In this document: piece by piece, positions 1 through 3,952 of the stretch
Layout of the letters: each line of letters begins with the position of its first letter
How positions within the stretch are numbered: the stretch's first letter is position 1
Assembly: GCA_022844165.1 (NCBI GenBank)
Contig: JALHMH010000001.1
Location: 253,420-317,419 of the forward strand
From: Lysobacterales bacterium
GTDB taxonomy: Bacteria; Pseudomonadota; Gammaproteobacteria; Xanthomonadales; SZUA-5
DNA length: 64,000 bases
Direction: 5' to 3'
The notes under the pieces: model-generated
Seen by the model: the letters and a program-made list of their open reading frames with translations, nothing else
Told to the model about the DNA's origin: nothing
The model's database searches: none
Translations under genes and position numbers: made by a program

Positions 1-1119
1 AGTTATGTACTCAATAATCCGCTGACCGCCACCGATCCGACGGGGAACTTCTCGCTTAGGCAGGCGATCGGGATTGTCATTGGCGTCGTCGCCGCGATCA
101 TCAGCCAGCAGTATTGGGCAATCGACAAACTGATCTCGTTCGGCATCGCCGTTGCTGGCGGATTCGCAAGCGCAGCGATCTCGACCGGCTCGCTCAAAGC
201 AGGGTTGTGGGGTGCGGTCAGTGCGGCAGTGTTCTGGGGCATTGGCACGCAGTTCTCGAAGGCGTGGGCGTTCGACACGGGAACTGCTTGCACGCAGCAC
301 ATGACCCGAGGGGCTGTTGCGGCAAAGGTCGCGGCACACGCAGCGACAGGAGGAACGCTTAGCGTCCTGCAGGGCGGCAAGTTTGGCCATGGATTCTTCT
401 CCGCTGGATTTACTGAAGCGCTAAGTCCGGCCGTGGGACAGATGGGCGATGGAAAGTCGTTCGGAAGCGTTCTCGGACGTACCGCAGCTAGCGCCACAAT
501 TGGTGGGACGGTGAGTAAGTTGACCGGTGGGTCGTTCGCAAATGGGGCGGTCACGGCGGCGTTCACGGTTGCGTTCGGAAATGCGATCAGCGAAACCATT
601 GCGTTTTCTGGGCAGGAAACGATGGAAGAAATGGTTGATCCGGAAGAAGATATCGGGTCTGGGGAAGCCATATTTAACGAGGTTGTCACAGAGTTTCGAG
701 ATTCCGGAAGCCTCCCGAGTCATATACAAATCGCGTACAGCGACGATTTAGCATACTTCAGAAACAACGAAATAGTGCGTTTTAGATCAGCGGAAGAGGC
801 GCGGGCAGCGGGCTTTTATGGAGCAGGGATCGCTGGCTATACCCAGACCCGAGTTGTGGATGGGCAAACTCAAGCGCGAATCCTGATTTTGAGAGGCGCT
901 GCGCACCCACGAAGTGCACTTGTCGCCATGACTTCTATGGACAGAGCAACTTGGCGACCTATCGTATTCACCAGACATGGCATGATGCGTTTTACGATTG
1001 CTCATGAGATCCGCCATGCACTTGACTCGTCTCTTGGTAGCTCTTCGGGCTTAGATCATTGGCGTGCGAATGAATACGGCAGGACCGTGTGCAGGCAACT
1101 TGGAGGTGGTTGTGGGTAA
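1..1119 (+). CDS. Rhs repeat-associated core protein, C-terminal part (5' truncated by the window), with a putative HExxH metallopeptidase toxin tip
   Basis: Frame 1 is open from base 1: SYVLNNPLTATDPTG (Rhs core end motif, NNP..xDPxG), then a Gly/Ala-rich hydrophobic linker and a C-terminal AHEIRH motif; visibly lower GC in the tip. Confidence 0.85.
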   Translation, partial: SYVLNNPLTATDPTGNFSLRQAIGIVIGVVAAIISQQYWAIDKLISFGIAVAGGFASAAISTGSLKAGLWGAVSAAVFWGIGTQFSKAWAFDTGTACTQHMTRGAVAAKVAAHAATGGTLSVLQGGKFGHGFFSAGFTEALSPAVGQMGDGKSFGSVLGRTAASATIGGTVSKLTGGSFANGAVTAAFTVAFGNAISETIAFSGQETMEEMVDPEEDIGSGEAIFNEVVTEFRDSGSLPSHIQIAYSDDLAYFRNNEIVRFRSAEEARAAGFYGAGIAGYTQTRVVDGQTQARILILRGAAHPRSALVAMTSMDRATWRPIVFTRHGMMRFTIAHEIRHALDSSLGSSSGLDHWRANEYGRTVCRQLGGGCG

Positions 1120-1639
1120 GTATTTTTTCTGTTTGTTTTTGTGCCCCTCGTTTGCGAGTGCTACAACTGAGGCCGCCTTGGTAAACAAAGATTATCGGCA
1201 TGCGACGATTGTAGAAGCAGAAGCGACGGAGGCTGTTGACCGGGATTGTTATGTGTTCGAAACAAAGTCCGCTGGCAAGATCAGTCTACGGATAATAGGA
1301 GTTGGACCAGGGGACAAATTTGTTGTGGTTCTGCCAAGGAGAATTCCGAAGTGTTTCGCGGTCCCGAGAGACCCAAGAGTTATTATGCTCGTGACGGTCG
1401 ATGGGCTTAATTTGGCGACACTGTCGTGCGATGGCTTCGACCCACTCGCTCGTTTTTTGGAGCTGAGTAGCATTGCATTATTGGATGACAAAGAGCCGCG
1501 CAATTTCAATGGGTGCAATACGTCCAAAATTGTAGATAAGAGAGATGCGATGGCATTTCTATACCGAATGTGGCTGGGTGTAAACGTTGATGTCGTTGGT
1601 GGGAGCGCAATCGAACCTTTCTTACAAACTAAAGAATGA
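1112..1639 (+). CDS. Putative cognate immunity protein with signal peptide
   Basis: GTG start at 1112 with GGAGG at 1102-1106, overlapping the Rhs stop; N-terminus MGKYFFCLFLCPSFASA resembles a signal peptide; low GC; immunity role inferred from position. Confidence 0.6.
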   Translation: MGKYFFCLFLCPSFASATTEAALVNKDYRHATIVEAEATEAVDRDCYVFETKSAGKISLRIIGVGPGDKFVVVLPRRIPKCFAVPRDPRVIMLVTVDGLNLATLSCDGFDPLARFLELSSIALLDDKEPRNFNGCNTSKIVDKRDAMAFLYRMWLGVNVDVVGGSAIEPFLQTKE

Positions 1640-1880
1640 GCGACGGCGACAACAATGCGTGGCGCACCTACACAGAATCATTTGGTCCCTGTCGGCTCGG
1701 AGCACCAAGCTGAAAAAAGAGAAAGCTGAAAAAAGAGACACCCAGTTTTCGAAGCGCGCAAGCAGTGGTGGTGGCATCCAGGGCTACGGATGTCGAAATC
1801 GCTGTTCGGAGGAAGGAGGTTTTGAGCGCGCACGCAACGCGCCCAGACGCCAGCGGCGCCAAGAATCCCATGTGAGTTTC

Positions 1881-2029
1881 TCAGCCGGTCACGAGGCTCC
1901 GGGCGTAGCCGATGCCTTTGAGCCATTTCCGCTTCCACTCTGCGGCCTTGGCTTCGAGTGCTTCCACGCTGGCAACGAAGCGCCAATATCCAGAGCCGAC
2001 GCCTTTGACGTGCGCGGTCCGGTAGTTGG
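1881..2029 (-). pseudogene. 3' fragment (~49 codons) of a paralogous Y1 transposase
   Basis: Aligns without gaps to 2661-2809; encodes ...TAHVKGVGSGYWRFVASVEALEAKAAEWKRKWLKGIGYARSLVTG*. Confidence 0.85.
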
Positions 2030-2094
2030 AACTGGACTGCGGAGGAACTGGACTGCGGACACCCAGTGCGCCAGGCGAAGCTGGCGCGATCTAG

Positions 2095-2214
2095 GTGACA
2101 AATCGGAACTAACAATATTTGCCGCCTGTAACGTCTCCGCCGGGGCGATCATTCCGGAGTTTTGGCATCGAACAGCAAGGGGACATTGTTCGAGACTATT
2201 ACTACCTGAGGCAG
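2095..2214 (+). pseudogene. Fragment resembling the C-terminal half of an Rhs/VgrG-associated zinc metallopeptidase toxin
   Basis: Reads VTNRN*QYLPPVTSPPGRSFRSFGIEQQGDIVRDYYYLRQ; EQQGDIVxDY recalls the post-HExxH EQQ(A/G)xI..DY motif of DUF4157-like domains (recognised from memory); internal TAA at 2110. Confidence 0.45.
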
Positions 2215-2392
2215 GGTAAGGAAAAAGAGACACCCGGTAAGGAAAAAGAGACACCCAGTTTTCGAAGCGCGCGAGCAGTGTGGTGGCATCTAGGGCTACG
2301 GATGTCGAAATCGCTGTTCGGAGGAAGGAGGTTTTGAGCGCGCACGCAACGCCTCCAGACGCCAGCGGCGCCAAAAGTCCCATGTGAGTCTC

Positions 2393-2455
2393 TCAGCCGG
2401 TCACAAGGCTCCTGGCATAGCCGATGCCTTTGAGCCACTGCTGTTTCCACTGCGC
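2393..2455 (-). pseudogene. 3' fragment (~20 codons) of a second paralogous Y1 transposase
   Basis: Encodes AQWKQQWLKGIGYARSLVTG* versus AEWKRKWLKGIGYARSLVTG* in the intact gene. Confidence 0.8.
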
Positions 2456-2660
2456 AAGGGAAAAAGAGACACCCAGTTTTCGAAGCGCGCGAGCAGTGGT
2501 GGTGGCAAAAAAAGAGACACCCAGTTTTCGGAGCGCGCAAGCAGTGGTGGTGGCATCCAGGGCTACGGATGTCGAAATCGCTGTTCGGAGGAAGGAGTTT
2601 CTTGAGCGCGCACGCAACGCCCCCAGACGCCAGCGGCGCCAAGAATCCCATGTGAGTCTC

Positions 2661-3647
2661 TCAGCCGGTCACGAGGCTCCGGGCGTAGCCGATGCCTTTG
2701 AGCCATTTCCGCTTCCACTCTGCGGCTTTGGCTTCGAGCGCTTCCACGCTCGCAACGAAGCGCCAGTAACCTGAGCCGACGCCTTTGACATGCGCGGTCC
2801 AGTAGTTGGTGTCGAGTCCGAGTTTGCTTAACGCCGTCGGCTCACGCTCATCGATCTTGCCGCGTTTGCCGGGCCTGAGTTGGCGGCCGGTGTAGTCCAC
2901 CAGCTCAATGTACTGGCGATTGCTCATCGCCAGTCTGGCGAACGCTTGGTCTTTCAACATATCGAATCCAAGCCGAACGCCGGCAATGGGTTGGATTGGT
3001 TCATCCGCTTTGCTGGGATCTTTGCGCAGTTCCTCGGCACGCACCTGCACGCTGGTGTGATCGCTGCTCTCGATGCTGTCGGCAATCCCTGCTCGAACCG
3101 GATTGAGGTCCACGTACGCCATCGCCGCGGCGAGCGCGGCTTCGTCGTCAAGCAACTGAGATTTGAATCGGCCTTCCCAGAAGCGCCCCGTCACGTCATC
3201 TTCTGCGTTCGCCTTGCGCGCGATGTGCTCGTCAAGACAGCGCATAAACCACGAAAGATCCGTGAGCCGATCGCGGCGAGCCTTAAGTGCAGCTTTGTCA
3301 GCGCACAGCGCTGCGATTTTCGCCGTGTTCTGTTCCGCCTCACGCGCCGGGAACAATTGCACCCAACGCCGGGCAATTTCCTCATCAGACCAATTGCGCG
3401 CGGCGGTCGGTTCAATCGACAGCACCACGTGCAGGTGGTTGCTCATCACGGCGTAGCTGTAAACATAGACCGCAAAAATCCCAGCCAATTGCACAATACG
3501 CGAGGCGATCATTGGCTTGCGGTGCTCGTAGTCCACGCCCGTGATCGGATCAATGCCGCACAGCCACGCGCGTCGCACACATCGTGCAACGCAGTGATAG
3601 AAGGCTTGCTGGCCTTCGGCGACCGTGAGGTGGCGAGCTTGAGTCAT
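2661..3647 (-). mobile_element. Y1 HUH transposase (IS200/IS605 TnpA superfamily, long RAYT-like type), 328 aa
   Basis: YHCVARCVRRAWLCG, HUH motif MSNHLHVV, GRFWEGRFKS, catalytic-Tyr motif YVDLNPVRAG; likely start MTQAR at 3647. Confidence 0.9.
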
Positions 3648-3833
3648 GCGGCGATCATTGCGATGACCGCTGAGCTTGTCTGTAGGGCGTACGCTGAAAG
3701 TGGTGTCGGAATTTTCTGACAGCGAAGGAGTGCCGGCAATGTCTGGCTGGCTCGTCTGCTTTGCTGGGCTTGCCGCGCGGTTCTTCGGCACGCAATCTTG
3801 TCATGCCGAGTTGGCGAGTCGGCGCGCCCTTGC

Positions 3834-3877: not shown

Positions 3878-3952
<75 letters not shown>

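Follow-up and report, generated by a model that had tools for sequence, protein, structure and literature searches.

Truncated end copies form arrays beside a multicopy HUH/Y1 element of TnpA-Y1 subclass 2.3 in a Lysobacterales bacterium

The transposase locus studied here is one copy of a multicopy, IS-like element of about 1.24 kb, located at approximately 2507-3745 of the window (the whole stretch of 64,000 nucleotides that was analysed). The element encodes a single transposase of about 325 aa belonging to TnpA-Y1 subclass 2.3 and contains no second ORF. Next to its right end lies an array of truncated units anchored at the same kind of end, and, judging from related loci, such end arrays are a hallmark of the family, present at both ends of the element and in many bacteria. 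We are confident of this description, that is, of an IS-like subclass 2.3 element with family-wide end arrays and no cassette role. The complete explanation, in which the terminal "stutter" array originates from cycles of nicking, extension and rejoining, is on balance the one that we favour, and the nick-extend-rejoin mechanism taken by itself may be the origin of the arrays, a proposal that we make with some reserve.

The transposase gene (2661-3647, minus strand) encodes a protein of 328 aa, close to the ~325 aa of subclass 2.3, and its homologues are mostly 316-335 aa long. The motifs N70-H71-L-H73, F-W157-E and Y178-V-D-L-N-P183 are invariant or nearly so among 36 sequences, the middle HuH residue being L in the window protein and Y or V in some members. 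As far as the available text of Quentin et al. 2018 (PMC6006769) goes, subclass 2.3 is characterized by ~325 aa and by NH(Y)H, WE and YVDLNP motifs, is reported mainly from Chromatiales and Alteromonadales, and has no described element ends; length and motifs of the window protein (NHLH, FWEGRF, YVDLNP) match Table 1 of that paper. In the AF2 model (pLDDT 85.4), strands 71-78 and 162-166 enclose helices at 80-149, and residues 199-327 form a helical tail, which agrees with the beta3-alphaC insertion of ~55 aa and the two-part C-terminal tail of the subclass. Foldseek ranks 1-11 are all Y1 transposases, among them 4er8_A (E 2.2e-3, prob 1.00) and those of ISDra2, S. tokodaii and IS608, with no match reaching E 0.001; this ranking is consistent with the Y1 fold, in which a beta-strand bears the HUH motif and the helix that follows bears the tyrosine. 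Profile scores were below the cut-offs both for Pfam Y1_Tnp (PF01797; E 0.0034, 18 bits against 23) and for NCBIfam REP_Tyr_transpos (E 7.5e-10, 38.9 against 80), and searches of PDB chains with the protein and with the 36-sequence profile gave nothing relevant. Motifs and fold match in supporting the sequence-only reading that the gene encodes an HUH/Y1 enzyme, and they place it, by sequence and model, in the catalogued but uncharacterized subclass 2.3.

The genome of this bacterium contains 28 protein matches to the transposase, many of them at contig ends. At least eight are full-length and open, with 67-100% identity, and thus the element behaves like an insertion sequence. Transposases of subclass 2.3 are abundant in Lysobacterales, and one search returned at least 7951 relatives. 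Matches in a plasmid collection carried only the generic labels "transposase" or "hypothetical", with no IS name, and no RNA datasets with the locus were listed.

Both ends of the element carry a subterminal inverted repeat, consensus GGGACACCCA, which sits 9-14 nt inside each tip. The non-coding right end (2507-2660, plus strand) has GACACCCAG at 2516-2524 and an outer tail at 2507-2515. At the left end (3648-3745, minus strand, outer limit approximate) the motif GGCACTCC at 3727-3734 is degenerate with respect to the family consensus GGGACACC; it lies ~85 nt upstream of the start, in the same position as the family consensus GGGACACCCA, and is followed inward by a short palindrome (TGTCAGAAAATTCCGACA). 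The absence of long terminal inverted repeats claimed from the sequence was correct as regards long ones, but the short subterminal repeat, degenerate in this copy, had escaped notice. All 11 aligned genomic copies end ~150 nt past the stop codon with ACTGG(G/A)TGTC, and most of the 79 related loci have the inverted motif ~85 nt upstream and 140-220 nt downstream. The regular expression for the motif was derived from the copies of the window genome and then counted in relatives, with the orientation contrast as control: at the 79 loci from other genomes, 180 downstream matches were right-end-oriented and 27 opposite, and upstream the counts were 123 and 11. The ends of the window copy gave no significant hairpin signal (fold z -0.1 to +0.8), no GTAG-REP palindromes flank the gene, as had been noted before, and inspection by eye of four full copies (C28, C3c, C54, C3b) revealed no target-site duplications. 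A reading of four junctions as a 7-nt duplication flanking a 9-/14-nt end fragment was dropped because it is indistinguishable from a plain two-copy tandem repeat. Runs of three or more GGGACAC are absent from the genome, and in a quick look GGGGCAC arrays had no link to the elements.

The array of the window lies outside the right end of the full copy, and all its units are on the plus strand. Module M1 (1723-2027, ~305 nt) comprises the non-coding right end and the last ~150 nt of a transposase gene, with GACACCCAG at 1737-1745, whereas M3 (2236-2455, ~220 nt) and M4 (2456-2506, ~51 nt) are right-end-anchored fragments of shorter reach. Between M1 and M3 lies module Mf (2044-2214), which has the motif GGACACCCAG followed by the hairpin GCGCCAG...CTGGCGC. 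The repeat search and blastn gave 95.7% identity over 302 nt for 1729-2029 against 2508-2809, and for 2243-2451 identities of 92.9% with 1730-1939 and 92.4% with 2509-2719. A 47-nt block starting AAAAAGAGACACCCAG occurs four times (1730, 2243, 2461 and 2509), the block of M4 (2461-2507, 47 nt) being 98% identical to the reference copy. The fragments have in common their outer end, which consists of GACACCCAG and a tail of 9-14 nt, and differ in how far they extend inward. These alignments bear out the earlier description of five motif-anchored modules in the same orientation, with a fixed outer and a variable inner end, and the module coordinates proved accurate. Moreover, three exact micro-units of 16, 16 and 21 nt, which had not been listed before, occur at outer junctions: the outermost (1707-1722), made of the tail and the first end-motif bases, is a tandem copy of 1723-1738, that of Mf (2028-2043) repeats 2044-2059, and the third (2215-2235), made of the tail and GACACCC, repeats 2236-2256. 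M1 and M3 differ from the adjoining full copy by 4% and 8%, as do unlinked paralogues, indicating that they are old copies or are derived from other copies.

Module Mf had been taken for foreign DNA, which does not hold. Mf is unique in the genome, but its first 30-40 nt (bases 2057-2094) recur in 6 of the 24 other genomes of the family, and its hairpin is present in both the MFE and centroid folds (z -1.3 and -1.6). Within the fetched stretch, a transposase homologue accompanies two of nine Mf-like loci and is lacking at the other seven. From these sequence comparisons, Mf is the end of a related repeat family and not cargo.

On the other side, the full copy is bordered directly at its left end by an internal transposase fragment of ~47-62 nt (3738-3800, minus strand). 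Its segment 3748-3794 shares 79% identity with 2997-3043, and 3732-3794 can be aligned with an inner part of the C28 copy. A tRNA-Asn(GTT) gene (3878-3952, plus strand, found by ARAGORN) borders the variable region. A genome of the same genus (G008) is syntenic only from position 3831 rightward and does not share what lies to the left of tRNA-Asn. The flanking gene of that genome is only 75% identical, which makes it too distant to show gain or loss of units.

Similar arrays were found at many homologous loci, as the sequence-only reading had proposed to check. At least two right-end motifs within 700 nt are present in 36 of 65 eligible loci and at least three in 22, against a single locus of the 65 with at least two in the opposite orientation. 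For left ends the corresponding numbers are 31 and 10 of 73 loci, with none in the opposite orientation, the count of at least two being possibly inflated by a second GACACC in the left-end palindrome of some copies. In each orientation, the background amounts to 0.14-0.20 motifs per 700 nt. Beyond GTGTC, units share a tail whose median length is 10 nt (IQR 9-13; 98 junctions, 43 loci). Most units are short, with a median spacing of 55 nt for right ends and 43.5 nt for left ends; those of the window (51-305 nt) exceed the median of the family. Tail-only units occur at L085, L086 and L044, the second of which has up to nine motifs in 570 nt, and family units of 8-30 nt were also seen. Arrays are also present in L111, whose record bears the title complete genome, and in L130, on a complete Pseudoalteromonas replicon with a 40% identical transposase. 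At about nine unit starts inspected by eye, unsystematically, no microhomology or conserved dinucleotide was obvious. Locus L063 has an odd unit that resembles the Mf case and comes from a different subfamily; neither this unit nor Mf can arise by purely local copying, an observation that speaks against local re-copying.

The earlier view that the enzyme acts at existing ends fits this pattern, which recurs at homologous loci in many genomes. In the mechanism that we propose, the strand 5'-tail-GACACCCA-3' would be nicked by the transposase outside the motif, always at the same distance from it, and a phosphotyrosine would keep the enzyme on the 5' end of the element. A host polymerase would then copy into the element from the 3'-OH of the flank, over anything from a few bases to a few hundred, and the new 3'-OH would attack the phosphotyrosine, leaving the old strand rejoined behind a fresh partial copy. 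Repetition of this cycle at any tip, at either end of the element, would build an array, and an enzyme-linked tip from another copy or from a related repeat might occasionally be joined, giving rise to Mf. The strand cleaved, the position of cleavage and its polarity are those that we infer from the geometry of the arrays alone. At L114, a 256-nt unit with a 32-nt mini-unit resembles a copy of the neighbouring pair, as tandem re-copying that ran through an older junction would produce, an argument that concerns this single locus. However, several micro-units include 3-13 nt without conservation between independent copies; the nick site would thus not coincide with the limit of conservation, which the model leaves unexplained. 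The divergence of M1 and M3 from the full copy next to them also weighs against the model.

The strongest alternative is that fresh full-length copies repeatedly insert, in the same orientation, into or beside the ends of a resident one, and that homologous recombination between the older left part and the newcomer then deletes the duplicate, leaving a full copy and the old right-end stub. Such nested insertion would account for Mf and for the odd unit of L063, which come from other subfamilies, for the 4-8% divergence of M1 and M3, and for the internal transposase fragment that abuts the left end at 3738-3800. Copies do cluster: by reading of the hit lists, a second large copy in the same orientation lies within 3 kb at about 10 of the 79 loci, and contig C3 has several copies within 23 kb. 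However, each tail-only or 8-30-nt unit would need a full insertion in the last bases followed by a clean deletion, the unit starts inspected were not preceded by a conserved target motif, where elements are dissimilar, their left parts would be hard to eliminate by recombination, and the composite unit of L114 is better fitted by re-copying. Thus, we regard nested insertion as an unlikely, albeit substantial, competitor. It is improbable that the host alone duplicated the units in tandem, through replication slippage or unequal crossing-over at a junction rich in repeats, with no part played by the transposase. Slippage can expand two existing units, and the runs of 10-12-nt tails at L085 and L044 look like its product, but the outer boundary is fixed 9-14 nt from a family-specific motif at 43 loci in many genomes, the same pattern is found at both ends with strict orientation, and the first duplications lack obvious microhomology at the inspected junctions.

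The array lies close to an Rhs/YD-type gene, whose 3' part (1-1119, plus strand) encodes a C-terminal tip with an HExxH motif. This ORF extends upstream beyond the window, to position 251398 of contig C1, and contains the core-end motif ...NPLTATDPTGN; the tip has no family match in Pfam or NCBIfam. It is followed by a small ORF taken from the ORF list (1121-1639, plus strand), with a GC content of 47% against 59% for the window and no family match in Pfam or NCBIfam, which is a putative immunity gene, a role assigned from its position only. It had been proposed that the array captures DNA segments as cassettes and so diversifies the adjacent Rhs toxin/immunity locus. The suggested enrichment near Rhs exists but is mild: Rhs-like sequence occurs within 3 kb at 6 of the 79 related loci, downstream and convergent in 5 of the 6 as in the window, and is absent at the other 73. 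This is above a rough expectation of less than 1 in 79, estimated from three Rhs-like loci in the 4.68-Mb genome and given here as a guide rather than as a formal test. Nevertheless, no module carries a toxin-, immunity- or cassette-like gene in the ORF list, M1, M3 and M4 consisting only of transposase 3' fragments and the right end, and Mf of a repeat end; arrays are frequent, at both ends, although 73 of the 79 loci have no Rhs-like match; and only one copy of the window genome, that of the window itself, is near Rhs. Moreover, flanks just outside the arrays are slightly poorer in GC than distant flanks (57.5% vs 61.2%; 59 loci, Wilcoxon p 0.0008), a difference in keeping with insertion into acquired DNA where it is tolerated, for example Rhs tips. 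Tolerated insertion sites give a simpler explanation of the mild enrichment, and we consider diversification of the Rhs locus by cassettes very improbable; the array is probably a by-product of end processing, with no demonstrated link to Rhs genes.

Least probable of all is an assembly artefact of this metagenome-assembled genome, in which repeat copies had been misjoined: the assembly has 59 contigs with many element copies at contig ends and its best public match is a metagenome run, but the units differ by 2-8% and are thus distinguishable, and the same architecture is found in many other assemblies, including complete replicons. Short contigs from one public metagenome run cover 1991-2321 and 2480-2588 with no differences and so bridge the junctions M1|Mf|M3 and M4|M5; as this run is possibly the source sample, these contigs may not be independent. 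The 2455/2456 junction was not seen among the contig pieces listed.

The sequence-only reading did not recognize a characterized system here, which stands for the ends and arrays of subclass 2.3, for which the literature search found no paper, but not for the subclass itself, the TIRtrons or the BIME amplification model, all of which are published. With subclass 2.3, as treated in the available text of Quentin et al. (PMC6006769), the window family shares the large insertion after the HUH strand, the long C-terminal tail, the several diverged copies (at least eight full-length, 67-100%) and the absence of palindromic REP hairpins beside the gene, with fold z near 0. It differs in its abundance in Lysobacterales and in having its ends, inverted-repeat motif and nested arrays now defined. 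TIRtrons (TIRYT) are Y1 genes flanked by terminal inverted repeats, many of which share GGGGWSAS, and these TIRs occur singly, as dimers or grouped, according to the text available of Di Nocera et al. 2013 (PMC3733652). The corresponding part of Quentin et al. (PMC6006769) assigns the majority of TIRYTs to subclass 2.1, which has an HTH tail, and not to 2.3. The (C/G)GGGACAC of the window family fits GGGGWSAS at 7 of 8 positions and flanks the gene on both sides, the left copy in the window being degenerate. However, nested truncated end-anchored units with transposase fragments are not described for TIRtrons in those sections of PMC3733652.

The closest precedent for the mechanism is TnpA-REP, which cleaves ssDNA with formation of a 5'-phosphotyrosine and performs strand transfer, and for which the Fig. 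7B legend, in the portions available of Ton-Hoang et al. 2012 (PMC3333891), proposes tandem BIME amplification by nicking, 3'-OH extension and rejoining. The likeness lies in the Y1 enzyme, the 5'-phosphotyrosine, the relaxed secondary cleavage and a "rolling-circle-like recombination" that adds tandem units. On the other hand, as described there, BIME units are REP pairs and the gene is domesticated and single-copy, whereas the units here are truncated ends with one fixed and one variable boundary and belong to an autonomous multicopy element. IS200/IS605 transposases cleave at a defined distance from a recognition element that lies subterminally, as stated in the same portions of that paper (PMC3333891), and the window protein resembles ISDra2 and IS608 in its Y1 HUH fold by Foldseek. 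That group has no inverted repeats, one-strand subterminal hairpins, a TnpA of ~150 aa and often TnpB, whereas the window element has an inverted repeat and a 328-aa protein, twice as long, with no second ORF, and does not belong to it. Nor is it a REPtron, a single-copy RAYT flanked by GTAG-type REP hairpins abundant in the genome: the window gene is multicopy and lacks flanking REP hairpins, and GACACCCAGTTTTC occurs only 6 times in the genome. In cassette arrays, whether integron-like or of Rhs orphan toxin/immunity genes, each unit is a gene with a recombination site, while the window modules lack genes and are of another kind. [quoted passage not shown] The analogy drawn earlier with IS91 and Helitrons fails because both ends anchor arrays and because the protein is a single-domain, single-tyrosine Y1 enzyme, which sets the element outside that group.

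Subclass 2.3 is large and had no described element structure or mechanism; its ends, its motif and a reproducible end-stutter signature are now defined, the conserved 8-10-nt recognition motif spanning Lysobacterales to Alteromonadales. The signature lets annotators recognize elements and their debris and explains breaks in short-read assemblies, and the strand cut, its position and its polarity offer biochemists a testable prediction. The attractive idea of an array feeding an Rhs toxin locus is removed as unsupported. More speculatively, and with less confidence than in the nick-extend-rejoin cycle itself, the movement of subclass 2.3 elements may be rolling-circle-like and two-ended, with the enzyme on 5' tips on opposite strands at the two ends, the arrays being a fossil record of initiations aborted after nicking, short extension and rejoining, and of occasional capture of tips in trans. 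If this were true, thousands of genomes would hold a readable log of HUH strand-transfer events, and solo end repeats and short arrays of tandem repeats elsewhere in such genomes could have the same origin.

The intact transposase gene (2661-3647, minus strand, 328 aa in the ORF list) is followed on its 3' side by a series of repeats, all in the same orientation. Repeat comparison of the window found the module coordinates of the sequence-only reading to be accurate: by blastn, 1729-2029 is 95.7% identical to 2508-2809, 2243-2451 matches both at about 92-93%, and a 47-nt block beginning AAAAAGAGACACCCAG occurs four times. The outer junctions carry three exact micro-units (the tail plus the first motif bases) of 16, 16 and 21 nt, and a piece of about 62 nt of internal transposase sequence (3738-3800) adjoins the opposite end of the full copy. 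A tRNA-Asn gene (ARAGORN) lies to the right of the element; to the left of the array lie the C-terminal tip of an Rhs-type gene and then a small low-GC ORF (47% GC), neither of which had a Pfam or NCBIfam match. The Rhs-type ORF (1-1119, extending upstream to position 251398 of contig C1; the small ORF follows and the block ends at 1639) carries an HExxH motif (TIAHEIRHAL) in its tip. Sequence shared with a same-genus genome, G008, begins at 3831 and continues rightwards only, the tRNA-Asn locus of that genome being without the entire block to the left; thus, the Rhs gene and the element lie in variable DNA.

Profile matches of the transposase are weak and fall below the cut-offs (Pfam Y1_Tnp, 18 bits, cut-off 23; NCBIfam REP-associated tyrosine transposase, 38.9, cut-off 80). 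Its motifs and predicted fold speak more clearly for its identity: NH-u-H, FWEGRF and YVDLNP are conserved in an alignment of 36 homologues, and the 11 best PDB matches of the AlphaFold model (pLDDT 85.4) are Y1 transposases, with E. coli TnpA-REP at the top and none reaching E 0.001. The protein matches subclass 2.3 of Quentin et al. (2018, PMC6006769) in length, motifs, several diverged copies per genome and absence of REPs, and, at the level of fold, in a large insertion past the HUH strand and a long C-terminal tail. Those authors describe it as an uncharacterised subclass in which no flanking structures could be identified. Relatives are labelled 'REP element-mobilizing transposase RayT' in one source, and only 'transposase' or 'hypothetical protein' in plasmid records. 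The genome also has a second, classical Y1_Tnp gene (contig C48, 21393-21728; 170-aa frame; 72 bits, above the Pfam cut-off), which is not related to those of subclass 2.3.

The gene belongs to a multi-copy element bounded by short inverted ends. There are 28 protein matches in the genome, many of them at contig ends, and eight are full-length and open (67-100% identity). [quoted passage not shown] The consensus of that upstream motif over 77 loci of other genomes is GGGACACCCA, at a distance of about 85 nt from the start; the window copy has GGCACTCC in its place, and its left end is therefore degenerate. The end motif is close to the GGGGWSAS common to TIRtron inverted repeats (Di Nocera et al. 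2013, PMC3733652), and it is kept in a Pseudoalteromonas replicon despite a protein only 40% identical. Most copies conserve a short hairpin directly past the stop codon (GACGCC-GCKG-GGCGTC type; window 2600-2640), and their 5' leader holds a conserved palindrome, GTCAGAAA/TTTCTGAC; these might act as a terminator, in control of translation or in binding of the enzyme. On contig C3, several full and partial copies occur in both orientations within 23 kb (443-23329), including a head-to-head pair at 14.2-15.6 kb. Runs of at least three GGGGCAC heptamers occur 15 times in the genome (C24:53332-60248, C3, C28 and others), some in inverted pairs. Their unit resembles the end motif, and likewise the GGGGWSAS of TIRtrons, and Y1 enzymes might generate arrays of this sort.

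A search near homologous transposases, in 79 loci from other genomes, mainly Lysobacterales, showed that the arrays recur. Motif matches in the expected versus the opposite orientation numbered 180 versus 27 downstream of the gene and 123 versus 11 upstream. At least two motifs within 700 nt were found at the right end of 36/65 loci in the expected orientation and 1/65 in the opposite one, and at the left end of 31/73 and 0/73, respectively; opposite-orientation arrays were counted for this class only. At least three motifs in the expected orientation occurred at 22/65 right and 10/73 left ends, and a 700-nt stretch of background averages 0.14-0.20 motifs in each orientation. Units of one locus share a tail beyond the motif with a median of 10 nt (IQR 9-13; 98 junctions, 43 loci), and so their outer boundary is fixed. 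Median spacing is 55 nt for right-end and 43.5 nt for left-end units; some units consist of the tail alone, and others exceed 1 kb (L062). To the left of the C28 copy (L026, 1260-1406), a CT-rich tandem array of at least six units of about 23 nt runs into the left-end motif, an extreme left-end stutter.

Two further loci speak against an assembly artefact, as they show the same pattern: L111, whose record bears the title complete genome, and L130, on a complete replicon of an isolate. Short public contigs, which may stem from the source sample, bridge two junction groups of the window array with zero differences. In a different sample of that study, one contig connects 2978 to 1729 with 6 extra letters; it would represent a different arrangement, with a unit of about 470 nt and then a new tip. 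Either the array may vary from sample to sample, or the contig may come from a paralogous locus.

The proposal of a cassette system diversifying the Rhs locus found no support, since no array module of the window contains a gene and 73 of the 79 related loci have no Rhs-like sequence within 3 kb. The six that do (L074, L116, L093, L054, L045 and L072, from six different assemblies) exceed a rough expectation of fewer than one, and in five the Rhs gene lies downstream and converges on the right-end array, as in the window; in L093, about 33 nt separate the outermost motif from the Rhs ORF end. The window copy is the only one in its genome near Rhs, and flanks beside arrays have slightly lower GC than distant flanks. 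There is some enrichment, and we read the proximity as insertion into tolerated, acquired DNA rather than functional coupling.

Nor is module 2044-2214 the foreign DNA it was taken for. It starts GGACACCCAG, and its head (2057-2094), the motif followed by a GCGCCAG...CTGGCGC hairpin, is found in 6/24 further genomes of the family, many of which hold it several times; the remainder of the module is unique in its own genome. As seven of nine fetched loci bearing this head have no transposase homologue nearby, the module is not cargo that was captured but one end of a related repeat family whose members are partly solo. Dispersal of such heads in related genera (L121-L129, genomes G008-G024), where the fetched stretch mostly lacks a transposase gene, suggests that they are solo ends or belong to a family of miniature derivatives; one (L122) has its own 15-nt stutter unit. 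The L063 array holds a comparable odd unit.

The arrays probably arise when the element is nicked at a specific site and a short stretch is then re-copied. This fits the geometry: the outer tip keeps a fixed distance to a conserved motif, the inner limit varies, both inverted ends behave alike, and the inspected junctions show no obvious microhomology. The enzyme-driven, one-ended part of the earlier cassette proposal is plausible. The enzyme would cut the strand 5'-tail-GACACCCA-3' and stay linked to the 5' tip of the element, the 3'-OH of the flank would be extended into the element, and the new 3'-OH would resolve the phosphotyrosine, so that a partial copy is inserted beyond the former tip. 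As the model predicts, a 256-nt unit with its 32-nt mini-unit in L114 resembles a copy of the neighbouring pair. The weak points of the model are that the fragments at 1723-2027 and 2236-2455 have diverged 4-8% from the full copy and that bases inside some micro-units are not conserved between copies. Moreover, since module 2044-2214 is foreign to the element, joining in trans, or nested insertion and later recombination, must also occur sometimes. The proposed steps correspond to the 'rolling-circle-like recombination' suggested for tandem BIME amplification by Ton-Hoang et al. (2012, PMC3333891), who had first shown that TnpA-REP cleaves, becomes covalently attached and carries out strand transfer.

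We found no description of subclass 2.3 ends or arrays in the literature covered; relevant material may lie beyond it, in the supplements of the two principal papers or in Di Nocera et al., Figure 9. The array first seen in the window is genuine and more widespread than the sequence-only reading had it, and the end array is a hallmark of the family.
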